Shown here: positions 303 to 41,456 of the stretch, in pieces | Position numbering within the stretch: the stretch's first letter is position 1 | Layout of the letters: every line of letters begins with the position of its first letter | Assembly: GCA_963829255.1 (NCBI GenBank) | Contig: CAWHIG010000016.1 | Coordinates: forward strand, 10,145-74,144 | DNA length: 64,000 nt | Source: an uncultured Bacteroidales bacterium | GTDB lineage: Bacteria > Bacteroidota > Bacteroidia > Bacteroidales > VadinHA17 | Direction of reading: 5' to 3' | Program-made: the position numbers and the translations under genes | Notes under the pieces: model-generated | What the model was told of the DNA's origin: nothing | The model's input: the letters and a program-made list of their open reading frames with translations, nothing else | Database searches by the model: none

Positions 303-420
303 GTGCTGGGTACTGGGTACTGGGTGCTGGTTGCTTAGTCTCTCAGTCTCTCAGTCTCTCAGTCTCTCAGTCTCTCAGTCCCTTAGTCTCCTCTTCTCCT
401 CTTCACCTCTTCACCCCTTC
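303..420. repeat. Three consecutive short tandem arrays: GT(G/A)CTGG x4, (T/C)(T/C)AGTCTC-type 8-mer x7, CTCTTCAC-type 8-mer x3-4
   Basis: Read directly: 303-330 gtgctgg gtactgg gtactgg gtgctgg; 335-390 ttagtctc tcagtctc (x4) tcagtccc ttagtctc; 391-420 ctcttctc ctcttcac ctcttcac cccttc. It sits between the kinase stop and the response-regulator start. Confidence 0.9.
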
Positions 421-2381
421 TATTCTTTCCTCCTTGGCAACACAATTTTAAAACTCGTTCCGGTTGCACCTTTGGCAGGATTATTATTCGAATCTGCAGT
501 GATCTGACCTTTATGCATTTTAACAATGCCATAGGCAGTTGCCAGTCCCAGTCCGGTTCCCTGTCCGATGCTTTTGGTCGTAAAGAATGGTTCGAAAATC
601 TTAGCCCGGTCTTCCTCCTTTATACCCGTACCTGTGTCACTTATAACAATTATTACGTCGCTGAGAGTGTCTTCCATCTTAATATTGACTGTTCCTCCTG
701 CCGGCATTGCATCAAAAGCATTCTTAATAAGATTTGTCAGTACCTGCATCATCTGTTCCTGATCGAGCATAGCTTCAGGATTTGTCGTCCTGTCATCGAT
801 ATTGATTTTAATCTTTGCAGGAATAATGAGGCTTTCAAGGCTGTGTTCTACCAGATCTTTAATACTGACTGTTTGATGGTTAACCTGATTCTTGCGGGCA
901 AAATTCAAAAGACCTGCAACAATTTTCTTGCATCTTCCGGCCTGGTCAACAATCAGTTTAAGATCTTCTCTGACAGGATCTCCGGCTTTCGATTCTTCCA
1001 GGAGAATGTTGCTGTACATTATTACGACTCCGAGAGGATTATTCAGCTCATGTGCTATACCTGCCGAAAGCTGGCCCATATGAGCCAGTTTTTCTGACTG
1101 TTTAAGAGCCTGTTTCATCGATGAGAGCTTCTCGTTTGATAATGCCAGATCCTTTACTGATTTGTGAAGTTTTTCGATAGTATAAGGCAGACACATCTCA
1201 ACTTCAGCCAGTCCCTTTTTGATTGCTATTGCATGCTCCACACAGCTTTCATAACCGCATGCACCACAATCGAGCTGATCCTTCTTTGTCTTCTTACCCA
1301 TCTTAATAAGAATCTCATTCACATCATTCTCATTAAGAGTCTCAATCCCATGATCTTGTGGTTTATGCCTGATCGACAGGTCCAACTCCGCGTATTCGTC
1401 AAACGATTTTTGCCAGCTCTCAGAATCGATATTTTGCATTTTACTGTTGGCATAGGAGCTTACCAGTGACCTTCTGTTGTATTGCTTACCGTTTTTTGAT
1501 AAACCGGGTCCCATAATACATCCCTCACAGCAAAGAAGTTCCATATGCTGGTTCTTAATCAGACCGGCTTCAAATTCCTTTAAGGCTCCCTGAAAGTCAA
1601 TTCTTCCTTCAGCAGCTATAATATTCCCTGTTATCGCATTGTCGCTTATCTTGGCTGTCTGAAGTAATCCACGGGCAACCGGGAAAATAGCACCTCTTCC
1701 GCCAAGAGGCTGATCAAATTCTACCGGGGTACCTGTCTCAGTGGTGATACCTCTCTCAGACAGCATATCTCTTAATTCGGTAAATGTTATAGCCTCATCA
1801 ACTTCACTGCTTTCAGCTTTCTTGGCAATACAGGGTCCGATAAATACAATTCTTGTATCCTTGCCATATTTTTCACGCATCACTCTGCTCATAGCCACCA
1901 TTGGAGAAACAACAGGAGCCAGGTTATCTACAAGAGCAGGGTGATAAAATTTGACATAGTTAACAATTGAGGGGCAATCAGATGAAATATAAAAATTTTT
2001 TCCCTCCGAAACAAGTTTTTTATATCTGTCTGCAACCAGGTCAGCACCGAAAGAAACTTCTGCAACGAATTCAAAGCCCAGCGCCTTAATCATACCTGTA
2101 AGAATATGATGATCAGGGATATCAGAGAATTCTGCGGGAAAACTGGGAGCAACAATAGCTGCAACTTTCGATTCACTTTCGAGAAGTTTTGCTACCCTGT
2201 CGGTTGTATTAAGAAAGACCTTTGCTCCCTGGCTGCACACTTTTGTACAATTGCCGCAGGCTATGCATCGCTCATCAATTACCTCGGCCTGTCCTCCCAC
2301 AATCCGGATAGCTTTGGCAGGACATTCCCTTACGCAGGTATAGCATGTACGGCAAAGCTCCTTTATTGTGTAAACCAACAT
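420..2381 (-). CDS. Putative sensory [FeFe]-hydrogenase-like protein (HydS-type H-cluster domain) fused to a histidine kinase (HisKA + HATPase_c)
   Basis: 653-aa ORF. It has two ferredoxin motifs ([23 protein letters not shown]). The H-cluster domain has variant motifs P1 SSDCPS, P2 GPCIAKKAE and P3 [13 protein letters not shown]. An extra Cx2Cx4Cx16C motif follows ([26 protein letters not shown]), then a coiled coil. Kinase motifs are the H-box [14 protein letters not shown]-box [10 protein letters not shown] and G-boxes DTGTGI and GTGLGL. Confidence 0.85.
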
Positions 2382-2399
2382 GTTAATTCAGTCTTATAA

Positions 2400-4121
2400 T
2401 CATAATAATACATTTCTTTTCTCAAAATGAGTAAAGAATATCTTTTTATCTGCAATATCAGCATTATCTTTTAACAGCTTTTCATATAAGTTGATAAGAG
2501 ACGGCGATTTGCATGGGAGATTAATCGCCTCTGTATCATCAGCCTGGTATACAAGTTTCGACCTGTTCCTGATCTCATCCTTTGAGGGACTGAAAGGTAA
2601 ACCTGCCCCATGTACGCATCCACCCTGACAAGTCATCACTTCAATCAGGTCATACTTTTTACCGGCTGCCATGGAAACTTTTAACTTTGCCAGACCTGTC
2701 AGACCATCGACAACTGCGACGTTAACCCCGTTGTCTCCTACCATAACTGAAATTTCCCTGAATGTTCCTCCCGATCGCAGCTTTTTAAAAATCTGTTTAT
2801 CAGGCTCTTTCTTCATTTTTTGATAATGATATGTCCTGATGACACCTTCAGCCATCCCTCCCGATACTTCAGCCATTATGGCGGCTGAGCTTCTTCCGGA
2901 CAGAGGTTCATCTGCCGGTTCATGTTCAATGTTTGAAGTGTCGATGCCGTATAACCTTATAAGCCTGGCCAGTTCTCTCACTGTCAAAACAGTATCCACA
3001 TCACTTATACCTTTTCTCATCATCCCGTCGCGACGGGCTTCAAATTTCATTGCCATGCAGGGAGTTGCAGATACAGAAAAGATCTCTTCAGGTTTAACCT
3101 GCAGCTGATCCGCTACCAGAGTCTTGATCAGTACGCCGGTGATCTGTTGCGGAGATTTTACGGTCGAGAGTTGAGGAATAAGCGAAGGAATAAATTGCTC
3201 AGCATATTTTACCCATGCAGGACAGGCAGAGATATACAAAGGGGTATCTGACTTATTCTCAATTCTGCCGGAGAGCTGATCTGCGATCTCGGATATACAA
3301 ACATCAGTACCTAATCCTGTTTTAAAGACCTTATCAAAACCAATTTTACGCAGGATGGCATTGAGAATCTTATCAAATTCCCTGGTATATCTCATCCCAA
3401 GTTCCTCGGCAATTCCGTAAACAACCATGGATGAATACTGAATGACCTTTACTATTTCAGGTTTATTAAGATATTCCTGTACTTCTGTAATATTGTGTTT
3501 TTCATGAAGAGCCCCGGTAGGGCAAACAAGTACACACTGGCCGCAATGAATACAGCTTGAAAAGTTAAAGTCCCTGTCCATGGCGGCGCCAACATGTGTT
3601 TCTCTTCCTTTATTAATAAAATCAAGTGATGTTGCAGTAATTACCTCCTCACAGACTCTGACGCATCGCCCACAGAGTATGCATTTGGACAATTCCCGTA
3701 TAATTGCCGGGCTGGATTGGTCGAGACGTGGTTTTATTTTTCTTCCGCGTATGCGCCTCTCTCGTATATTGAGCTCTTCAGCAAGCCTTTGAAGTTCACA
3801 ATTCAGGTTCCGGTCGCAGTACAGGCAATCGTCAGGATGGTTTGACAGCAGCAGTTCGACTATAGTTTTTCTTGCGGTAATTACCCTTGGGGAGTGTGTT
3901 TTAATTTTCATCCATTCCTCAACCGGCTGTGAGCAGGCTGTTACAAGACGGTCACGTCCTTCGACTTCAACAACACACATTCTACAGGCACCTGTAGGTG
4001 TAAACTCCTTCATTCTGCAAAGCGTCGGTATAATAATTCCGTTGCGATTAAGGGCGGAAAGGATTGTTTCACCCTTTTCGGCTTTGATCTTCTTATTATT
4101 TACCTGTAGTGTAAAAAGCAT
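2400..4121 (-). CDS. hydA: [FeFe]-hydrogenase large subunit, HydA-like (NuoEF-coupled architecture) with non-canonical H-cluster motifs
   Basis: 573-aa ORF. The N-terminus is 2Fe-2S ferredoxin-like, followed by HPDDCLYCDRNLNC and two 4Fe-4S motifs (CILCGRCVRVC, CIHCGQCVLVCP). The H-domain motifs are ISACPAW, TPCMAMKFE and EVMTCQGGCVHGAGLP, with a small-subunit-like C-terminal tail. It starts 5 nt after hydB ends and stops 18 nt before the next gene. Confidence 0.85.
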   Translation of the reverse strand: MLFTLQVNNKKIKAEKGETILSALNRNGIIIPTLCRMKEFTPTGACRMCVVEVEGRDRLVTACSQPVEEWMKIKTHSPRVITARKTIVELLLSNHPDDCLYCDRNLNCELQRLAEELNIRERRIRGRKIKPRLDQSSPAIIRELSKCILCGRCVRVCEEVITATSLDFINKGRETHVGAAMDRDFNFSSCIHCGQCVLVCPTGALHEKHNITEVQEYLNKPEIVKVIQYSSMVVYGIAEELGMRYTREFDKILNAILRKIGFDKVFKTGLGTDVCISEIADQLSGRIENKSDTPLYISACPAWVKYAEQFIPSLIPQLSTVKSPQQITGVLIKTLVADQLQVKPEEIFSVSATPCMAMKFEARRDGMMRKGISDVDTVLTVRELARLIRLYGIDTSNIEHEPADEPLSGRSSAAIMAEVSGGMAEGVIRTYHYQKMKKEPDKQIFKKLRSGGTFREISVMVGDNGVNVAVVDGLTGLAKLKVSMAAGKKYDLIEVMTCQGGCVHGAGLPFSPSKDEIRNRSKLVYQADDTEAINLPCKSPSLINLYEKLLKDNADIADKKIFFTHFEKRNVLL

Positions 4122-4126
4122 AAAGG

Positions 4127-6061
4127 TTATTTAACATTTACTGCACTGAACTTACAAATATCAAAACAGATACCACAACCGATACATTTTTCTTCGACAA
4201 TAAAGAAAGGCTGAAGTCGTGTTCCATAAATCGCGTTTACAGGGCATTTTGAAGCACAGGCTGTGCAACCGGTACATTTGTCCACATCAATTGAGAATGT
4301 TCTTAATCCCCTGCAGATATTTGCCCTGCATTTTCTGTCAAAAATATGCTCTTCAAACTCATCTCTGAAATTCTTCAGAGCGCTGATGAATGGGTTTGGA
4401 GCAGTCTGCCCAAGTCCGCAAAGTGAAGTGTCCTTCATTACTGATGCGATTGTTTCGAGTTGCATGACTCCTTTAAACCTTTCAAGAGTTGTACCTGATT
4501 CTTCATTTAAAGGTTTCCTGATCACACTTTCCAGTATCTCGAGCATCCTGCCGGTACCTTCACGGCATGGGATACATTTACCACAACTTTCGTTACGGAT
4601 AAATTCCATATAATATCTTACAAGATCAACCATACAGGTGTTCTCATCGATAATGACGAATCCTCCTGCTCCCATTCCAATCCCTTTTTCTTTAAGATCT
4701 TCGTAATCAACGGCAATATCGAGATTTTCACTTGTTATGAAAGAACCCGAAACGCCTCCGAGCTGTATTGCCTTAAACTCTTTTCCCCCCTTTATTCCAT
4801 CAGCAATATCTTCCAGAACTGTCCTGATAGTTGTGCCCATTTCGATCTCAACGACGCCCGACATACGACCTTTTCCTGCAACTGCAAATACTTTGGTACC
4901 CGGACTGTTTTCGGTTCCCAGCGTCCGGAACCATTCTGGTCCGTTCTGCATTATCAGGGGGACATTCATCAGAGTCTCCACATTGTTTATCACTGTCGGT
5001 TTTCCGAATAGTCCGGCGGTTGTAGGATAAGGAGGTTTTAGTTGAGGCATGCCCCGTTTTCCTTCAAGAGTATTTATCAGAGCAGTCTCTTCACCGCAAA
5101 CGAAAGCTCCGGGTTCAATACGGATCATAATATCAAGATTATAACCGCTTGAGAAAATATTATGTCCGAAAAGCCCGTAATCTCTGGCCATGTCGATTGC
5201 TTTCTGAAGCCTGTTCTTAGCATGGTCAGAACCCGATCTCATAAATATAATGGCATTTGAGGCCCCAATAGCATATGCAGCAATTGCAATACCTTCTATA
5301 AGGCGGTGCGGATCGCTTTCAAGAATGGTTCTGTCAGTAAAAGCTCCGGGATCGCTCTCTTTTGCATTACAGATAAGATACCGTGCATTTGAAGTAGTAT
5401 TCAGAGCATGCTTCCACTTTAGTCCTGTCAGATATCCTCCGCCGCTTCTGCCTCTCAATCCGCTTCTTTCAATTATGTCGCATACCTCTTCAAAAGTATA
5501 ATTTCTGATTGCTTTGATATATGCACGATAGCCTCCACGGGCTATATATTCATTAATGCTTTCAGGATCATAACATCCACAATTTCCAAGTATGATCCTT
5601 TTTTGTTTTTTGAAAAAAGGCAGCTCATCCATAAAAGGTATTCCGGACCACAGTTCAAAACCTTTAGTACCGATCTGACCGGCCAGATCATCCTCATTTA
5701 TATCATTATGAAAAACACCATTCAGAAGAGGCTCCACCTTCTCTTCTGTGATGTTTCTGAAGAACAGTTTATTCTTACCCGGGATCTGAACACATACCAG
5801 TGGTTCAAAAGTTGCAGGTCCGTTACACCCGACATTCACTAACGCTGCAGATGGTTCATTTTCCGTTAAATAGGTCTCGATTGCTGAACAGGTTTTTTCA
5901 GATCCTGCAATAATACTGCTTGTACCGGAAGAGATAAAGATTACCGGCTTGTCAGGCTTTTCCCTTCTCACCTGCTGCAATACCTTTTCTGTTTCCGGCA
6001 ATAATGTATCGGATTCAAACAAAAGTACTTTTTCAATCAGGAATGTTTTTAAATCTTCCAT
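4127..6061 (-). CDS. hydB: NuoF-like flavoprotein subunit of the hydrogenase complex (HydB-like)
   Basis: 644-aa ORF with NuoF/HydB signatures: GLRGRSGGGYLTGLKW, CNAKESDPGAFTDR and ESCGKCIPCREGT. The C-terminus has two 4Fe-4S motifs, CTGCTACASKCP and CIGCGICFDIC. Confidence 0.85.
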   Translation of the reverse strand: MEDLKTFLIEKVLLFESDTLLPETEKVLQQVRREKPDKPVIFISSGTSSIIAGSEKTCSAIETYLTENEPSAALVNVGCNGPATFEPLVCVQIPGKNKLFFRNITEEKVEPLLNGVFHNDINEDDLAGQIGTKGFELWSGIPFMDELPFFKKQKRIILGNCGCYDPESINEYIARGGYRAYIKAIRNYTFEEVCDIIERSGLRGRSGGGYLTGLKWKHALNTTSNARYLICNAKESDPGAFTDRTILESDPHRLIEGIAIAAYAIGASNAIIFMRSGSDHAKNRLQKAIDMARDYGLFGHNIFSSGYNLDIMIRIEPGAFVCGEETALINTLEGKRGMPQLKPPYPTTAGLFGKPTVINNVETLMNVPLIMQNGPEWFRTLGTENSPGTKVFAVAGKGRMSGVVEIEMGTTIRTVLEDIADGIKGGKEFKAIQLGGVSGSFITSENLDIAVDYEDLKEKGIGMGAGGFVIIDENTCMVDLVRYYMEFIRNESCGKCIPCREGTGRMLEILESVIRKPLNEESGTTLERFKGVMQLETIASVMKDTSLCGLGQTAPNPFISALKNFRDEFEEHIFDRKCRANICRGLRTFSIDVDKCTGCTACASKCPVNAIYGTRLQPFFIVEEKCIGCGICFDICKFSAVNVK

Positions 6062-6079
6062 CGGGGATTATTACAGGAG

Positions 6080-6574
6080 TTAGTCGTTTTCAATAATGTA
6101 CTTTAATTTTTTTATCAGTTCAGGAAGTTGCTCCGGTTTCACATGAGTATGATATTCGCCGTTCACATTGATAACCGGGCCATTACAACAGCCCCCCATG
6201 CATGAGACGATCTCATAGCTGAAATTGCCATCCCGTGTTGTCAGTCCTGGTAATACTCCAGTCTCTTCCCTTATTTTATTAATGATTGATTGTGATCCGT
6301 TAAGGAAGCATGAGGTGCCATTGCAGATCCTGATCTGAATTTTTCCTGAGGGAATGAACCTGAACCTGTCATAAAATGTAGCCAGGCCATAGATCTTTGT
6401 AGTGCTCAGACCTAAAAAGCTCCCTGTTTTAACAATAGCTTCCTCAGAGAGATAACCCAGATTGTCCTGTATTTCCTGAAGCAAAGGAATAAGATCTTCC
6501 CTTTTACCCTGTTTGTATTTTTTAAGAATTATTTCAAGATCAGTCGCCATCCAGATTATATTAAAGAATTTCAA
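6080..6574 (-). CDS. hydC: NuoE-like thioredoxin-fold [2Fe-2S] subunit (HydC-like)
   Basis: 164-aa ORF with a Cx4C...Cx3C pattern (ICNGTSCFLNG ... SCMGGCCNGP). An alternative start is the Met at 6550 (MATDLEIILKKY). Confidence 0.85.
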   Translation of the reverse strand: MKFFNIIWMATDLEIILKKYKQGKREDLIPLLQEIQDNLGYLSEEAIVKTGSFLGLSTTKIYGLATFYDRFRFIPSGKIQIRICNGTSCFLNGSQSIINKIREETGVLPGLTTRDGNFSYEIVSCMGGCCNGPVINVNGEYHTHVKPEQLPELIKKLKYIIEND

Positions 6575-6589
6575 TACAAAGATAATTGA

Positions 6590-6634
6590 TTTTATTGTTA
6601 ATAAATAAACATTGTTATTTTATTAACAATAAAA
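6590..6634. promoter_or_regulatory. Perfect 16-bp inverted repeat carrying three ATTGTTA/TAACAAT half-sites, immediately upstream of hydC; candidate repressor operator with Rex-like geometry
   Basis: TTTTATTGTTAATAAA (6590-6605) is the exact reverse complement of TTTATTAACAATAAAA (6619-6634). An inner ATTGTTA (6611-6617) and TAACAAT (6624-6630) are spaced by 6 nt. This is the same layout as TTGTGA-N6-TCACAA. Confidence 0.4.
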
Positions 6635-6855
6635 TAACTAACTATATTTATTATACTTTTTTAAATATATTATTGAATATTAACGTTTTACAAATTTTAA
6701 TAAAATCAGGTCGAGCATAAGTTACATCATCTGAAATGTAAGTCGGACCGGTTTTACATATTAATCATGTGAATCTAAGAAGAAAAGAGGTAGATAACAG
6801 CTCGGAAATAATTATTACTTTTGTTGCTGTTGTTTATTTATGAACAGAAAGAAAA

Positions 6856-7110
6856 ATGGCTCAAAGAATTGAGATGCAAATCTGTCTTGGAAGCTCCTGT
6901 TTTTCAAGAGGTAACAAAGACGTCGTAATGTTCATAAGAGAATATCTCAGGAAAAATCATCTTGATGACAAAGTTGTTTTTAAAGGTGCCCGATGTATGG
7001 GTCTTTGCAGTAATGGACCAAATCTGAGTATAAACGGCGTAACCCTTGAAGGGGTTACTCTTTCAAAAATAGAGAGTATACTTGAAAAAGAATTTGCCGG
7101 AATAGTATAA
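6856..7110 (+). CDS. Small thioredoxin-like [2Fe-2S] ferredoxin (NuoE-fold)
   Basis: 84-aa ORF with ICLGSSCFSRGN ... ARCMGLCSNGP, the same Cx4C/Cx3C spacing as hydC. It is the first gene of the plus-strand unit. Confidence 0.8.
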   Translation: MAQRIEMQICLGSSCFSRGNKDVVMFIREYLRKNHLDDKVVFKGARCMGLCSNGPNLSINGVTLEGVTLSKIESILEKEFAGIV

Positions 7111-7112
7111 GA

Positions 7113-7235
7113 AAAGTTTGAAGTGAGCTAAAGTTTGGAGTGACTAAAGTTGAAATGAAAGAATGAATAATGATAAAGTTGAATAATACTATAATACTTT
7201 AGCACTTTAGCACTCTAGGCACTTTAGGCACTAAT
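7113..7235. repeat. Inverted arrays of a CTAAAGT(G)/(C)ACTTTAG unit between the 2Fe-2S gene and the PAS sensor gene; potential long imperfect hairpin
   Basis: Left arm: aaagtttgaagtgagctaaagtttggagtgactaaagt. Right arm: actttagcactttagcactctaggcactttaggcact. The units are reverse complements of each other. Confidence 0.6.
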
Positions 7236-7245
7236 ATAAGTTAAT

Positions 7246-9132
7246 ATGGCAAACAGAAAGCCTGTTCTTTACATAAATGATGAAAAGTGCAGAAATTCAT
7301 ATTCCTGCGTACGAGTCTGCCCTGTAAACGCAATTGAGGTTAAACCCCAAAAGGCGCATCCGTTCATTCTTCCCGACAGATGCATCGGATGTGGTTTATG
7401 CTATGTTTCATGCACACCACACGCAATAGAATTCCGCGATTCAAAAGAATCAGTTAAGAAACTGTTATCATCCGGAAGAAAAACCGCAGCTCTTATTGAG
7501 CCAAGCATTGCATCGGAATTTGATGATATAACAGATTACCGGAAGTTCGTTGCTATGATAAGGTCGCTGGGTTTTGACTATGTTCACGAAGATTCGTTCG
7601 GAGTCGATCTGATAGCCGCTGCCTATGCAAAACTTTTCTTAAAAGCTGAAGGTAAATATCTGATCACGGCAAACTGCCCTTCAATTGTCAAACTTATTGA
7701 GAAGTTTCACCCCGAACTGGTTCCTAACCTTGCACCACTTGTCTCGCCTATTATAGCTACTGCAATGGTTGTAAAAAAGCTATACGGACCTGAGGTAGCT
7801 ACAGTTCAGATTGGCCCATGTATTGATGCAAAAGATGAATCGCTTATCTATGATTCAGATAAGCTTGTTGACGGAGTACTGACTTTTGTGGAACTGAGAG
7901 AGCTTTTTGATGAATTCAAGATCCAGGAAAGACTGGTAAAGATGTCCGATTTTGATCCGCCTCATGGAAATTGGGGGGCTCTCTACCCTCTGCCAGCAGG
8001 GATTATTCAGGCAGGAGGTATAAAGCGCGATATGGTTTCGAGCAGGGTAATTACAGCTTCCGGAAAAGAAGAAATCCTTGAAGCAATTAATGATTTCGAC
8101 AAATATATTGACACGATACAACACCATTTTAACTTATTCTTTTGCCATGGATGCCTGCTCGGTCCGGGAATGCAACATCATAATGAACGATTCAGGAGAA
8201 GAGCACTGGTGCGGAAGTATGCTGAAAAGAGAGTGGGCAAACTTGATAAAGCTCTCTGGCAAAAAAATATGGAAAAATGGTCAAAGCTGGATTTTTCAAG
8301 AGGTTTTACACCCGATGATCAGAGAATACCTGAACCGCCGGAAGAAGCTATTTTGGAGGTGCTTAAAATCATCGGCAAAAACAGCCCCGATGAGGAGATC
8401 AACTGTGGTGCCTGTGGCTATCTCTCTTGTCGTGAATTTGCTTCAACAGTTGCAAAAGGACTTGCGGTTCCGGAAATGTGCCATACCTTCAATCTTCGTA
8501 ATAAACAGGAATATATTGAGACTCTCCGGCAAACAAACAGGAAACTGGCTGAAACAAAAAAAGCCTTAAAAGAATCAGAAGAACTGGCACGCAGGGAAAA
8601 GGAGATTGCTCAAAGCACTTCAGATATGATGAACAACATGCTCGAAAAGCTTCCTTCCGGAGTGGTAATTGTTGATAATAATCTAAAAATACTTCATTCA
8701 AATCAAAGCTTTATTAACATAATCGGAGAGGATGCAAAAGCCATATCAGATGTAATTCCCGGTCTTGCCGGTGCAGATATCAAGACCCTCATCCCCTTCA
8801 ACATTTATAATATGTTCACATTTGTAATAAAGGAAGATGAACCTGTTGTAAGCAAAGATGTTCATTTTGAAGATAAAATGCTGAATATTTCCATCTTTCC
8901 GATAAGAAAGAACAAGATCTGCGGAGCAATAATCCGCGATCTGTATTCACCTGAAGTACAGGGGGAAGAGGTAACAAACAGAGTCAGTGAGGTGATTGAT
9001 AAAAACCTTGAAATGGTTCAAAAGATAGGATTCCTGCTTGGAGAAGGTGCATCTGAAACCGAGCAGATGCTGAACTCAATAATTGAATCGTACAAAACAA
9101 AAAAAGTGAATCTGAAAAACAACCTCAAATAA
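7246..9132 (+). CDS. Putative sensory [FeFe]-hydrogenase-like protein (HydS-type) with C-terminal PAS-like domain
   Basis: 628-aa ORF. Ferredoxin motifs are CRNSYSCVRVCP (3 Cys) and CIGCGLCYVSC. H-domain variants are P1 TANCPS, P2 GPCIDAKDE and P3 NLFFCHGCLLGPG. It has CGACGYLSCREFASTVAKGLAVPEMC, a coiled coil, then a PAS-like segment (LPSGVVIVDNNLKILHSNQSFINIIG...). Confidence 0.85.
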   Translation: MANRKPVLYINDEKCRNSYSCVRVCPVNAIEVKPQKAHPFILPDRCIGCGLCYVSCTPHAIEFRDSKESVKKLLSSGRKTAALIEPSIASEFDDITDYRKFVAMIRSLGFDYVHEDSFGVDLIAAAYAKLFLKAEGKYLITANCPSIVKLIEKFHPELVPNLAPLVSPIIATAMVVKKLYGPEVATVQIGPCIDAKDESLIYDSDKLVDGVLTFVELRELFDEFKIQERLVKMSDFDPPHGNWGALYPLPAGIIQAGGIKRDMVSSRVITASGKEEILEAINDFDKYIDTIQHHFNLFFCHGCLLGPGMQHHNERFRRRALVRKYAEKRVGKLDKALWQKNMEKWSKLDFSRGFTPDDQRIPEPPEEAILEVLKIIGKNSPDEEINCGACGYLSCREFASTVAKGLAVPEMCHTFNLRNKQEYIETLRQTNRKLAETKKALKESEELARREKEIAQSTSDMMNNMLEKLPSGVVIVDNNLKILHSNQSFINIIGEDAKAISDVIPGLAGADIKTLIPFNIYNMFTFVIKEDEPVVSKDVHFEDKMLNISIFPIRKNKICGAIIRDLYSPEVQGEEVTNRVSEVIDKNLEMVQKIGFLLGEGASETEQMLNSIIESYKTKKVNLKNNLK

Positions 9133-9138
9133 TCTTAA

Positions 9139-10284
9139 GTGAACAGGAACTTTTTTATAGAGGTTAACAGCCAGCAAAGGAACTTCGACGGGGAGAGGAT
9201 CAGCGGCGATGTATTTCTGTACAGGTATATTAAAGAAGAAGACAGGGTTGTTGCCGTATTATCCGATGGTATGGGACATGGGGTTAAGGCAAATATTCTT
9301 GCAACCCTTACGGCAACAATGGCCATAAATTTTACACGCGAACATAAGGAGGTTGACCGTATCGCTGAGATTATAATGAATACACTTCCGGTATGCAGCG
9401 AAAGAAAGATCAGTTATTCAACTTTTACAATTATAGATATTGAAAACAGCGGCAGGACAACAATACTGGAATATGATAATCCATCCTGTATTGTTTTAAG
9501 AGGGAGCCAGATATTTGATCCTTCATGGAAAAAAGTAGTGCTCGAGAAAGGTAAAAACTCAGGTAAGGTTCTGAAAACATGCACATTTTTGCCTGAGAAA
9601 GAAGACAGAATTATCTTCTGCTCTGATGGTGTTTCACAAAGCGGAATGGGAAGTGAACCATTTCCTTTTGGCTGGGAAAGGGACAGCATTGCCACTTATG
9701 CTGCATCGCTTGTTACAAGTGAAGCATCAATTTCTGCCAATATGCTTGCCGGAAAGATTGTTACGATGGCTCATAAAAACGACAACTATAAAGCCCGTGA
9801 TGATATAAGCTGTGCAACAATCTATTTCCGTGAACCCCGTAAATTAATTATCTGTACAGGTCCCCCATACGAGAAGGAAAAGGACAAAGATCTGGCCGCA
9901 AAAGTAGTTGCATATAAAGGAAAAGTGATCCTCTGCGGAGGTACAACAGCAGATATAGTTGCCCGGGAATTAAACAGGACTATTATTGATGAACTTATAT
10001 TCGAAGATCCGGAACTGCCGCCGGAAAGTTTCCTGGAAGGCATTGATCTGGTGACCGAAGGAATCCTGACACTTCAAAAGGTCAACGAAATATTGAAAAC
10101 TTATAATAACAGTGTAAAACTCGGAAAAGGACCGGCAGATAAGATCGTAAGGCTGATTATGGAGAGCGATGAGATTCACTTCGTTATCGGTACCAGGATC
10201 AATATCGCACATCAGGATCCTAATCTGCCTGTTGAACTTGAGATCAGGACGAACTGTAGTAAAGCGCATTGCGCGTCTGCTTGA
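9139..10284 (+). CDS. PP2C/SpoIIE-family serine phosphatase with an extra C-terminal domain
   Basis: 381-aa ORF with a GTG start 6 nt after the sensor stop. SpoIIE-type motifs are ISGDVFLY, VLSDGMGHGVKANILA and IFCSDGV. The 3' end may continue in the +1 frame to 10324 (see findings). Confidence 0.8.
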   Translation: MNRNFFIEVNSQQRNFDGERISGDVFLYRYIKEEDRVVAVLSDGMGHGVKANILATLTATMAINFTREHKEVDRIAEIIMNTLPVCSERKISYSTFTIIDIENSGRTTILEYDNPSCIVLRGSQIFDPSWKKVVLEKGKNSGKVLKTCTFLPEKEDRIIFCSDGVSQSGMGSEPFPFGWERDSIATYAASLVTSEASISANMLAGKIVTMAHKNDNYKARDDISCATIYFREPRKLIICTGPPYEKEKDKDLAAKVVAYKGKVILCGGTTADIVARELNRTIIDELIFEDPELPPESFLEGIDLVTEGILTLQKVNEILKTYNNSVKLGKGPADKIVRLIMESDEIHFVIGTRINIAHQDPNLPVELEIRTNCSKAHCASA

Positions 10285-10332
10285 GGAAAAATGGCTGAAG
10301 AAAGTGACTTTTGAATATATCTGAAAATTCAT

Positions 10333-10508
10333 TTAACCACAAAGTACACTAAGAAGGTGCCCCCTGGGGTTGTCTAAAAAGTCCTTTGTGAACCTTAGTG
10401 TTAACCTTAGTGTCCCTTTGCGGTAAAAAGTAAAAAATTGAACCACAAAGGATCACAAAGTACATCACAAAGGAACACAAAGGAGTGCACTTCACACTTT
10501 GTGGTTAA
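10333..10508. repeat. Palindromic CACAAAG-type intergenic element (terminal TTAACCACAAAG / CTTTGTGGTTAA)
   Basis: It starts ttaaccacaaagtacactaag and ends cacactttgtggttaa, with internal runs of cacaaagg / cctttgtg words. It lies between convergent genes, and the stop codon of the NUDIX gene lies in the terminal TTAA. Confidence 0.8.
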
Positions 10509-10944
10509 TGGATTTTTTTGATCTCTAAATACTCTATCGTCTTGTTGAACAAATGCGGCTGAATATCCGGATGAGTGAGATTTTCGGGAAGATGATCTGA
10601 CAAAACTATTTCAGCAATTTCCGAAATATCGGGTATCGGACCAATCTCAGAAACTTCAGCAAAGTAAAGCCTCCCCCAGCCTGTATCTCCGTCAATTGTC
10701 ACTGAATATGTTGCAACACATATTAGACTCAAATTTCAACAGCACCGGTTTCTTCCATTAATTCTCTTCCGGCTGCCTCAAATGAAGTTTCCCCCTCTTC
10801 AATATGACCTCCGGCAATCTCCCAGGTTGAACGCTTTTGATGCCGGACAAAAATCCATTTGCCTTTGAACCTGGCTGATATAACTGAATAGGTCAGTTTT
10901 GAATCAGGGACAAAAAGCGGGTCGAAAAATTTAACTTCGGTCAT
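10505..10944 (-). pseudogene. NUDIX hydrolase split by one frame shift (may be a consensus error)
   Basis: ORFs 10729..10944 and 10505..10732 are consecutive. The Nudix box GGHIEEGETSFEAAGRELMEETG is in the first part. The frames differ by 1, and the break is confined to aaattt at 10731-10736. Confidence 0.75.
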
Positions 10945-13907: not shown

Positions 13908-15309
13908 TCAAAGTTCATATTCCTGACCTTTGGCAGGTATTTCAATGTTTTTAAACCCTTCATCTGAAAGAGTCGAAACATACTTTTTCTGTGTCTCGTA
14001 CTCACCATGAACTATAAAAATCTTCGAGAGGCCGCTTTTATTCTGGCAACTTAAAAAGTTGACCATCTCCTTATAATCGCCGTGTCCGCTGAATGATTCG
14101 ATTTTTCTCACTTCAGCTTTTACTTCATAAACTGTTCCAAATATAGAGACTTCTCTATCACCTCTTCCTATCCTTGCTCCTAGTGTTGTTGGAGCACAAT
14201 ATCCTACAATAAGGATCGTATTGCGCGGATCAGAGATATTATTTGCCAGATGATGTTTTACCCGGCCGGCTTCCATCATACCTGAAGCGGAAATAATAAC
14301 ACACGGTTTTTTATGATCGTTGAGTTTTTTTGAATCCTCAACTTTAGTAATATAAAATAGATTTTCAAATCCAAAAGGATCGGGATCGTTTTGCAATACA
14401 TTAAGGAAATTCTGATTATAACACTCCGGATGCATTCTGAAAACAGTAGTTGCATTAACAGCAAGGGGACTATCTACAAAAATATCAATCCTGGGCAATT
14501 TGCCCTGATTAAAAAAGTTATTGAGTGAAAAAACGATTTCCTGTGTGCGGCCAACACTGAAAGCAGGGATTATAAGCTTCCCACCTTTATTTACACATGT
14601 ATTCACTACTACGTTCAGAAGCTCTTCTTCTGCCATCACTGTATCGTTATGTAGCCTGTCTCCATAAGTTGATTCAGTAATAAGGATTTCTGCCTGGGGG
14701 AAAGGCTTTGGAGGAGCAAGTATCTGATCAACCAGTCTGCCTATATCACCTGTATAAGCTATCTTTTTGATCTGCCCGTTTTCGGTGATCTGAAGATTTG
14801 CCACACCGCTGCCAAGCATATGGCCGGTATTTGTGAACTTAACTTTTACGTTTTCATCAACCCTGAAATTCATTTCATATGGTACACCGATAAAGAGTTT
14901 CATACAGGCTGTTGCATCAGCCTGTGTATAAATAGGTTCCACCGGTCGCAAGTCCCTTTTTAACTCTGCGTTTATTGAAAGTCAATGTATCATGCTCCTG
15001 AATAAAAGCAGAATCAGCCAGCATTATAGCACAAAGGTCACGGGTTGCATTAGAACAGATCACCGATCCCCTGAAACCAAGCTTATAAACATAAGGTATC
15101 AGTCCTGAATGATCTATATGGGCATGGGTAAGAATAATATGATCAATCTGAGACGGATCAAACATAAGGTCTCTGTTCATACCATCTGTTTCCAGGCCTT
15201 TTCCCTGGAACATGCCGCAATCAAGAAGTATTTTTTTCCCTGAATCTGTGGTAATAAGATGTTTGCTTCCTGTTACTTCTCTTGCAGCACCTATAAATTT
15301 TATTATCAT
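13908..15309 (-). pseudogene. MBL-fold beta-CASP family hydrolase (RNA-metabolising type), split by one frame shift
   Basis: ORF 14917..15309 carries HAHIDHSG. ORF 13908..14951 continues the family. The frames overlap at 14917-14983, and ...RVKKGL then PVEPIYTQADA reads through if one base near 14946 is removed. Confidence 0.8.
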
Positions 15310-41328: not shown

Positions 41329-41456
41329 TTTCTTCCTTTGTGTTCCTTTGTGACATCCTTGTGTTCCTTCGTGGTAAGAAAAAATTTAACCACAAAGGAC
41401 ACGAAGGGATTCACAAAGGAATTATTATAAGAACGTTGCATGCAACGTCCCTACAC
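41329..41456. repeat. Composite intergenic element: CACAAAG-type palindrome plus ACGTTGCATGCAACGT palindrome
   Basis: cttcctttgtgttcctttgtga ... tttaaccacaaaggacacgaaggg, then gaacgttgcatgcaacgtccctac (41431-41454). Confidence 0.8.

Follow-up and report, generated by a model that had tools for sequence, protein, structure and literature searches.

The window analysed here, 64,000 nucleotides of contig C16 (CAWHIG010000016.1, positions 10,145 to 74,144 of the forward strand) from an uncultured Bacteroidales bacterium, carries three plus-strand genes for a small thioredoxin-like [2Fe-2S] protein, a putative sensory [FeFe] hydrogenase, HydS, and a PP2C-type phosphatase (Table 1). We find that this trio is a bona fide, widely conserved member of the phosphatase-linked kind of sensory-hydrogenase units, and that the locus itself is an ordinary one. 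The reading that we favour, with moderate confidence, is that of a phosphatase-linked H2 or redox sensing device of the group C sensory [FeFe]-hydrogenase kind, encoded in one operon. What is new is modest: an orphan C-terminal domain of the phosphatase, a minimal variant made of ferredoxin, PAS and PP2C, complete carrier genomes that lack the classical partner proteins, and an occasional junction with a cassette that holds a sensor of the M2e type.

The genome bin to which the window belongs comprises 18 contigs with 3.26 Mb and is 90.7% complete. Its closest relatives are uncultured Bacteroidales. A preliminary description of the window, made from the letters alone, had placed the three genes nearly end to end, with 6 nucleotides between sensor and phosphatase, and had seen a palindromic repeat and a convergent NUDIX gene behind them. 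The list of open reading frames (ORFs) and the sequence bear this arrangement out: hydS ends at 9132, the PP2C gene starts with GTG at 9139, and repeat and NUDIX gene follow at 10324-10517 and 10505-10944. The identities proposed for the three products are upheld by matches to PF01257, PF02906 and PF07228.

Conservation of the sensor-phosphatase unit

Related units were collected as the best 80 loci for a phosphatase query, an alignment of 15 sequences, among species-representative genomes; nearly all of them are labelled Bacteroidota. The sensor gene lies directly 5' of the phosphatase gene in 56 pairs, and in most of the 80 loci a [2Fe-2S]-like ORF is the first gene of the trio. The trio together with the whole divergent hydrogenase block is syntenic in most loci, and the genes 3' of the PP2C gene vary. 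Within the 56 pairs, the gap between hydS and the PP2C gene usually ranges from -4 to +12 nucleotides, with -4 and -1 as the commonest values. Such tight or overlapping gaps suggest translational coupling of the two genes. Several carriers are cultured, e.g., Marinifilum flexuosum DSM 21950, Marinifilum caeruleilacunae and Plebeiibacterium marinum, and so the interaction of HydS and PP2C as well as the substrate are directly testable. A tandem duplication, in which a HydS-PP2C pair is directly followed by a complete 2Fe-2S-HydS-PP2C trio, was observed in L061, L062 and L071 (Marinifilum, Labilibaculum).

Four more distant neighbourhoods (L121, L122, L124 and L126), whose PP2C proteins are 31-38% identical, show the unit in other settings (Table 1). 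The most informative one is L121, where the trio diverges from a fused hydrogenase of 1144 amino acids with the domain order Fer2_4, Pyr_redox_2, H-domain and small-subunit domain. The ferredoxin of L121 is homologous to the 84-residue protein of the window. The protein of 167 amino acids encoded behind it lacks an H-domain, and hhalign shows it to be a homologue of the PAS region and tail of HydS (96% probability, E 3e-9). Since the sensor is reduced to PAS and tail in this locus, and still lies between the ferredoxin and PP2C genes, PAS and tail are likely the coupling element. By sequence, this arrangement marks ferredoxin, PAS tail and PP2C as the putative minimal core of the unit.

The small [2Fe-2S] protein and the HydS sensor

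The first gene product carries a C-x4-C...C-x3-C set of cysteines (Cys10, Cys15, Cys47 and Cys51). HydS starts with two ferredoxin-like motifs, seven cysteines in total, ahead of the H-domain (PF02906, residues 79-307, E 7e-36). All four ligands of the H-cluster are kept, namely Cys144 (TANCP), Cys192 (GPC), and Cys300 and Cys303 (FFCHGC). In an alignment of HydS with the structures of the bifurcating HydA proteins of T. maritima and T. kivui (7p5h, 7qv7), TSCCP is changed to TANCP, by which the proton-relay cysteine (C299 in CpI) becomes Asn, and MPC is changed to GPC, by which Met353 becomes Gly. Asn is the commonest residue at the relay position across the HydS orthologues. As the H-cluster site is kept and the relay cysteine is missing, HydS probably serves to report H2 partial pressure and not to turn over.

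Behind the H-domain follows an exact Cx2Cx4Cx16C cluster motif (Cys387, Cys390, Cys395 and Cys412; PF04060, residues 385-412, E 1e-8), then a helical linker, and finally a C-terminal region of about 170 residues. A PDB search with the single sequence of this region gave no match. A profile built from 18 HydS orthologues, searched against the PDB, retrieved exclusively PAS domains as top matches, with Aer2 as the best one (E 0.002). The PAS-like region is followed by a nearly invariant tail motif, VQKIGFLLGEGASETE, at about residues 591-606. The exchange of Met for Gly in the pocket and the Cx2Cx4Cx16C motif, both present in TmHydS of Thermotoga maritima, have been described as traits of the PAS-type (M2f, group C) putative sensors (PMC8163306, PMC10055695). 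Judged by these traits, HydS is a group C (M2f, PAS-type) putative sensory [FeFe] hydrogenase. In genome surveys, HydS and its PP2C should be counted as regulators and not as H2-producing enzymes.

The first ferredoxin-like motif of HydS (residues 15-25, window positions 7288-7320) reads C-x2-S-x2-C-x3-CP, in place of the usual C-x2-C-x2-C-x3-CP. The Ser variant occurs in about 25 of the 56 orthologues, and the others keep the cysteine. The exchange suggests that this motif may hold a [3Fe-4S] cluster or a Ser-ligated one.

The phosphatase and its second domain

The PP2C domain scores 45 bits against PF07228 (cut-off 25; residues 34-226). The metal-binding residues Asp24, Asp43, Asp163, Asp221 and Asp222, whose possible loss had been raised in the preliminary description, are all present in the window protein, and each is kept by 90% or more of 56 diverse family members with 31-54% identity to the reference sequence. 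A kinase or STAS domain fused to one of the three proteins, raised there as well, was not found within the three ORFs by Pfam, NCBIfam and fold searches. The AlphaFold model of the PP2C protein is of high quality (predicted local distance difference test, pLDDT, 92.8; predicted template modelling score 0.89). Residues 1-232 of the model match, in Foldseek, a Sphaerobacter Ser/Thr phosphatase, SpoIIE, the RsbU domain of Rv1364c, RsbX and SiaA with E-values from 5e-14 to 2e-8 (e.g., 3pu9, 4.6e-14; SpoIIE, 5mqh, 3e-13; RsbX, 3w40, 6e-11). From the intact Asp residues and the fold, the enzyme is predicted to be catalytically competent.

Homologues of the phosphatase consist of two domains and have 394 amino acids. 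An exhaustive search with an intact orthologue as query yielded 361 clusters (50% identity) at E < 1e-30; most of those listed have about 390 amino acids and match over their full length. The second domain, residues 235-394, carries the conserved loops CG(G/A)TTA, LVTEG and GT.IN.AHQDP, and reaches a pLDDT of 91.5 when modelled alone. It resembles little else. No Pfam family is common to more than 2 of 33 members, and Foldseek against the PDB returned no fold at E <= 0.001, the best meaningful resemblance being methylglyoxal synthase (MGS) with a template modelling (TM) score of 0.42-0.52. A profile search of the PDB had the SIS protein GmhA as its best match (E 0.046). Several assignments were tried and gained no support: an MGS-like domain, as hhalign gave 0.2% probability against an MGS-domain alignment (a weak test, with five PurH sequences); a SIS domain, with GmhA at E 0.046 as the best match; and a STAS or GHKL kinase domain, which found no match by fold or profile. 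Nor was the domain found as an independent family: the 577 short profile matches all seem to be pieces of this phosphatase or calls of it that end too early. We therefore treat the domain as an undescribed one, which within these searches apparently occurs only in this PP2C family. In a class-wide genome sample it was found in 2 of 301 genomes, too sparse for a phylogenetic profile.

Candidates for kinase and substrate

The preliminary description had reported no kinase or anti-sigma partner near the unit and had taken the missing kinase as a peculiarity. The first statement is sound for Ser/Thr kinases, RsbW-like and STAS genes. A profile search of the whole genome found two small STAS proteins, both on contig C14, as well as one RsbW-like kinase, encoded next to a likely ybeY gene on contig C12; it found no Hanks kinase (Pkinase), and no STAS or HATPase_c_2 match on C16. 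The second statement is not: 75 of the 80 Bacteroidales loci and all four distant neighbourhoods are without a linked kinase. Neither a STAS gene nor an RsbW gene of the type found in this genome occurs in the 80 loci, and the four distant neighbourhoods sampled contain no STAS gene and no RsbW-like kinase. The lack of a linked kinase is therefore the rule for the family and not special to the window.

This genome holds seven SpoIIE-type phosphatase genes, each of them at least about 25 kb away from every STAS, RsbW-like and SiaC gene. Unlinked phosphatase genes are thus the rule in this organism, which fits a situation where several sensor-phosphatases feed shared hubs. In Bacillus, RsbU and RsbP are sensor-phosphatases that feed a common hub. 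Eight SiaC-family genes (PF09345) were found, at C14:958191-959152 and in seven other places, one of them beside a DUF6272 protein. For a 3.3-Mb genome, this is a large unlinked partner-switch repertoire.

Proposed mechanism and points that weigh against it

We infer that HydS, poised by the small [2Fe-2S] protein as its redox partner, would sense H2 or redox state. From the C-terminal Cx2Cx4Cx16C cluster, the redox state would reach the PAS domain and the nearly invariant tail, and the tail would contact the translationally coupled PP2C and switch its activity. The C-terminal domain of the phosphatase may act as a regulatory or docking domain. The enzyme would dephosphorylate a Ser/Thr regulatory phosphoprotein that is encoded elsewhere; the likeliest substrate in this genome would be an unlinked STAS or SiaC-type partner-switch protein, with kinases of the RsbW- or SiaB-like kind. 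H2 would then be one among several phosphatase inputs that converge on a shared hub, and the PP2C branch would run parallel to a histidine-kinase branch that lies across hydCBA. The sole genetic support for such a mechanism comes by analogy from Thermoanaerobacterium, where a sensor deletion affects adhE expression and ethanol yield only in the presence of the neighbouring phosphatase and hydrogenase genes, hfsC and hfsD (PMC5707799).

Several points weigh against this reading. The mechanism of signal transduction by group C HydS proteins is regarded as unknown in the field (PMC11376134). The PAS domain, which the preliminary description had ascribed to the sensor, is indicated by the orthologue profile and by the Pfam models that match at about residues 462-566, but all six of these PAS models stay below their cut-offs (E 0.003-0.04). 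The window copy of the PP2C gene is frameshifted near its 3' end and could be inactive. In two complete related chromosomes, G320 and G352, a HydS-PP2C pair occurs without STAS, SiaC or Pkinase, and a STAS or SiaC substrate can therefore not be general for the family. Finally, two-domain PP2C proteins of about 50% identity were found without a detected sensor hydrogenase or hydrogenase homologue in L067, L069, L072, L073 and L075-L078. As these homologues lie away from hydrogenase sensors, the family is not restricted to hydrogenase sensing. In L075, a likely guanylate kinase gene and then a gene for a 208-residue protein without Pfam match are located upstream of the PP2C gene, and genes resembling Sel1-repeat proteins and a phosphoglucomutase-like enzyme downstream.

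Even so, the comparison narrows the search. Across phyla, the sensor has this phosphatase as its constant, translationally coupled partner, and the phosphatase carries a conserved undescribed second domain. The conserved unit does not include a linked kinase, and the classical STAS and SiaC substrates cannot be universal.

The frameshift in the phosphatase gene

The PP2C ORF of the window encodes 381 amino acids and stops at 10284, and not at 10324, because of a single extra C at position 10250. The extra base exchanges the last 24 residues; its removal restores ...RRTVVKRIARLLEEKWLKKVTFEYI and the end at 10324. The end at 10324 given in the preliminary description is hence right for the frame of the homologues, while the open frame of the window ends earlier. 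One might take the gene as a genuine pseudogene, in which the extra C is real, the C-terminal domain has lost its final helix and strand, and the phosphatase branch of the locus is decaying in this population. The site lies outside any homopolymer, and the lost residues 371-394 correspond in the model to a helix of the core and to the final β-strand. Apart from the extra C, the gene carries no lesion and shares 91% identity with intact orthologues. Moreover, at least three genes within about 30 kb, namely those for a REC-histidine kinase hybrid, the NUDIX protein and an MBL-fold hydrolase, are split and yet intact in the closest relatives, a rate which fits assembly indels better than decay. 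A hydB copy on contig C14 appears split as well, and along with the PP2C frameshift the split genes point to single-base indels as a frequent feature of the assembly. Since several nearby genes are split alike, an assembly indel is likelier than gene decay; the extra C is probably an assembly error, and a true pseudogene seems improbable to us.

A linked cassette with an RsbW-like kinase

The five loci with a linked kinase share a cassette ahead of a second HydABC. It encodes a DRTGG protein, an RsbW-like kinase of 136 amino acids, a PAS-less H-domain protein, a second DRTGG protein, a PHP protein and a HATPase. The PAS-less sensor corresponds to the M2e type, as described for TamHydS (PMC8163306). 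In L059 and L068, the cassette begins immediately 3' of the PP2C gene; in L054, one ORF lies between them. This proximity would fit a push-pull arrangement, in which PP2C opposes the RsbW-like kinase and the substrate is a protein of the cassette, e.g., DRTGG. In the lineage of the window, the cassette would have been lost, and PP2C would have been rewired or left without a dedicated kinase.

The distribution of the cassette was followed in 50 genomes with the PP2C family, taken from the retrieved loci. STAS domains are entirely missing from five of these carrier genomes, two of which are the complete chromosomes G320 and G352. In G320 and G352, which are also devoid of SiaC and Hanks kinases, the sole small RsbW-like kinase sits in the cassette. 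Of the 50 carriers, 30 have the cassette kinase, compared to 5 of 300 other genomes in a class-wide sample. Both modules, however, go along with [FeFe] hydrogenases, which confounds this suggestive enrichment. Further, 20 of the 50 carrier genomes, among them that of the window, lack the cassette kinase, and the PHP phosphoesterase of the cassette could already oppose its kinase. As an alternative across the family, the kinase of this cassette is the strongest lead, although we regard the push-pull arrangement as a rather unlikely explanation. A related idea, which is equally speculative, is a two-arm phospho-switch: the PAS-type HydS would gate PP2C, the M2e-type HydS would gate the RsbW-like kinase, both arms would act on a shared non-STAS phosphoprotein, and the C-terminal domain of PP2C would serve as docking or ligand module. 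If true, this would be the first concrete signalling route for group C and D sensory hydrogenases.

The divergent hydrogenase block and the histidine-kinase branch

The genes hydCBA encode a trimeric hydrogenase of the group A3 type and are divergent from the trio. Directly after hydA follows a second sensor, an H-domain histidine kinase of 653 amino acids, which is a paralogue of HydS with 37% identity. Beyond the window, just upstream on C16, genes for a REC protein, a REC-histidine kinase hybrid, Rex, RibF and a HydG-like protein were found. The preliminary description of the neighbourhood had overlooked this second sensor and the REC proteins. The histidine-kinase branch (420-2381 in the window and C16:8833-10367, minus strand) thus comprises the H-domain histidine kinase, a REC-only protein and the REC-histidine kinase hybrid, and like the PP2C branch is devoid of a DNA-binding output domain. 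How either branch would reach transcription is not visible from the locus.

From this neighbourhood, one could argue that no dedicated Ser/Thr kinase exists and that both sensors belong to one circuit. PP2C would then act within the locus, on the REC protein, the REC-histidine kinase hybrid or the hydrogenase, or else its activity would be set by a phosphorylated metabolite bound to its C-terminal domain. In most Bacteroidales loci, the REC-histidine kinase hybrid, the REC protein, the sensor kinase and hydABC are indeed conserved along with the trio, and a DNA-binding output is visible in neither branch. Distant loci, however, have the HydS-PP2C pair without two-component genes, and PP2C enzymes of the SpoIIE-RsbU-RsbX clade are not known to act on phospho-Asp. 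Binding of a metabolite would agree with the Gly/Thr-rich loop between strand and helix in the C-terminal domain, and with its weak best matches, GmhA and MGS, both of which have phosphosugar-binding folds. These structural matches are not significant, and the hhalign comparison with the MGS-domain alignment likewise argues against it. We hold both versions for quite unlikely and retain the reading of a substrate that is encoded elsewhere.

Relation to known systems

HydS agrees with TmHydS and with the HydS protein of Ruminococcus albus in the two N-terminal ferredoxin-like motifs, the kept cluster cysteines, the loss of the relay cysteine and the change of Met353 to Gly. The relay position holds Asn in HydS of the window and Ala in TmHydS, and the lineage of the window differs from both proteins by the Ser in place of the second cysteine of the first ferredoxin-like motif. 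Common to all three are also the C-terminal Cx2Cx4Cx16C motif, followed in the window protein by a putative PAS domain, and the position beside a bifurcating HydABC (PMC8163306, PMC10055695).

The preliminary description had likened the unit to the hfs and hydS clusters. This is in line with the order of a HydS/HfsB-type sensor and an HfsC-type Ser phosphatase (PMC11837493; bioRxiv 10.64898/2026.10.06.756941), and a sensor-phosphatase pairing has been described for hydS loci of Kiritimatiellia (bioRxiv 10.64898/2026.10.06.756941). It had also assumed that a kinase or RsbW-like partner accompanies the phosphatase in those systems, which is correct for one of them. For R. albus hydS, an adjacent Ser/Thr kinase, missing at the window locus, has been reported, as cited in PMC5707799. 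The hfsABCD operon of Thermoanaerobacterium saccharolyticum and Thermoanaerobacterium thermosaccharolyticum consists, according to PMC11837493, of a small first gene, the PAS-bearing sensor HfsB, the Ser phosphatase HfsC and the ferredoxin-linked hydrogenase HfsD. As HfsD is a hydrogenase, this operon is without a kinase, and by description it resembles the unit of the window in its small gene, PAS-type sensor, Ser phosphatase and lack of a kinase. Two differences remain. The hfs operon ends with HfsD, whereas the operon of the window ends after the phosphatase and is linked to a divergent trimeric hydrogenase, HydCBA. For HfsA, no resemblance to known proteins is described (PMC11837493), whereas the first gene of the window clearly encodes a thioredoxin-like [2Fe-2S] protein.

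In the cultured Bacteroidota Perlabentimonas, Tenuifilum and Williamwhitmania, BfuABC (HydABC) clusters with two bfuT sensor genes have been described (PMC11406978). As in the window at 420-9132, sensory hydrogenases of the PAS type and of the histidine-kinase type flank the genes of the bifurcating hydrogenase. The PP2C gene and the small [2Fe-2S] gene, which complete the operon in the window, go unmentioned in PMC11406978.

By fold and catalytic residues, the phosphatase belongs to the PP2C subfamily of RsbU, RsbP, RsbX and SpoIIE from Bacillus and SiaA from Pseudomonas. With RsbU and RsbP it would also share its proposed role, in which a sensor module gates a phosphatase that feeds a shared phosphoprotein hub. 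In contrast to the RsbU, SpoIIE and SiaA systems, it has no linked STAS, SiaC or kinase gene, and its extra C-terminal domain has no counterpart in RsbU, RsbP, RsbX, SpoIIE or SiaA.

Layout of the locus

Table 1. Features of the sensor-phosphatase locus and of related loci. Positions refer to the window unless a contig (C14, C16) or locus (L121) is given.
Feature	Position	Strand	Basis or remark
84-residue thioredoxin-like [2Fe-2S] protein (NuoE/HydC C-terminal type)	6856-7110	+	PF01257, E 6e-11; NuoE-family matches
HydS, 628 amino acids	7246-9132	+	Pfam domains, motif positions
PP2C domain, SpoIIE/RsbU/RsbX type	9139-9834	+	PF07228; GTG start at 9139
Conserved 160-residue C-terminal α/β domain of the PP2C protein	9841-10324	+	Alignment, model
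Single extra C	10250	+	DNA alignment with four orthologues (L024, L011, L087, L012)
Candidate Bacteroidota-type -7 box TACTTTTG, fits TAnnTTTG	6816-6823	+	33 nucleotides ahead of the first ATG
Spacer between [2Fe-2S] gene and hydS, 135 nucleotides, with short inverted oligomer units (CACTTTAG-type)	7111-7245		Read from the sequence
Inverted-repeat element of CACAAAG/CTTTGTG units	10324-10517		Between PP2C gene and convergent NUDIX gene
NUDIX gene, convergent, split into two ORFs	10505-10944	-	ORF list, Pfam
hydC	6080-6574	-	Pfam/NCBIfam
hydB	4127-6061	-	Pfam/NCBIfam
hydA	2400-4121	-	Pfam/NCBIfam
Second sensor, H-domain-FeS-HisKA-HATPase_c, 653 amino acids	420-2381	-	Pfam/NCBIfam
MBL-fold hydrolase gene, two overlapping ORFs	13908-15309	-	Single ORF in closest relatives
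REC-histidine kinase hybrid gene, two overlapping ORFs	C16:8833-9970	-	Single ORF in closest relatives
hydB copy, appears split	C14:860850-862320	-	
2Fe-2S (83 amino acids) / 167-residue PAS-plus-tail protein / PP2C, divergent from fused hydrogenase	L121:3999-5912		
L122: HydS / PP2C / 88-residue ORF / hydrogenase			
L124: stand-alone 2Fe-2S / HydS / PP2C trio			
L126: Rex / HydCBA / 76-residue ORF / HydS / PP2C			

The three plus-strand genes may tentatively be taken as one operon. A search for Bacteroidota-type -7 boxes found a candidate ahead of the first gene, and none in the spacer 7111-7245 or ahead of the PP2C gene. A single box at this place weakly fits a single operon. The candidate is the only plus-strand match to TAnnTTTG within 6575-7260; at a background rate of 0.33 per kb, this is weak evidence.

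The element behind the PP2C gene consists of seven inverted pairs, including arms of 43 nucleotides with 74% complementarity, and is probably the operon end or a repetitive extragenic palindromic (REP)-like element. Its repeat unit of 17 nucleotides has seven matches in the window, compared to 0.32 expected, and recurs at 41336-41373. Both the CACAAAG/CTTTGTG elements and the CACTTTAG-type units of the spacer form nested inverted repeats, and likely represent REP-like or terminator sequences. In the divergent control region near hydC, a palindrome with the geometry of a Rex box, TTGTTA-N6-TAACAA, is located at 6612-6629. The Rex gene (C16:8138-8764) lies about 8 kb away from this palindrome on the same contig.

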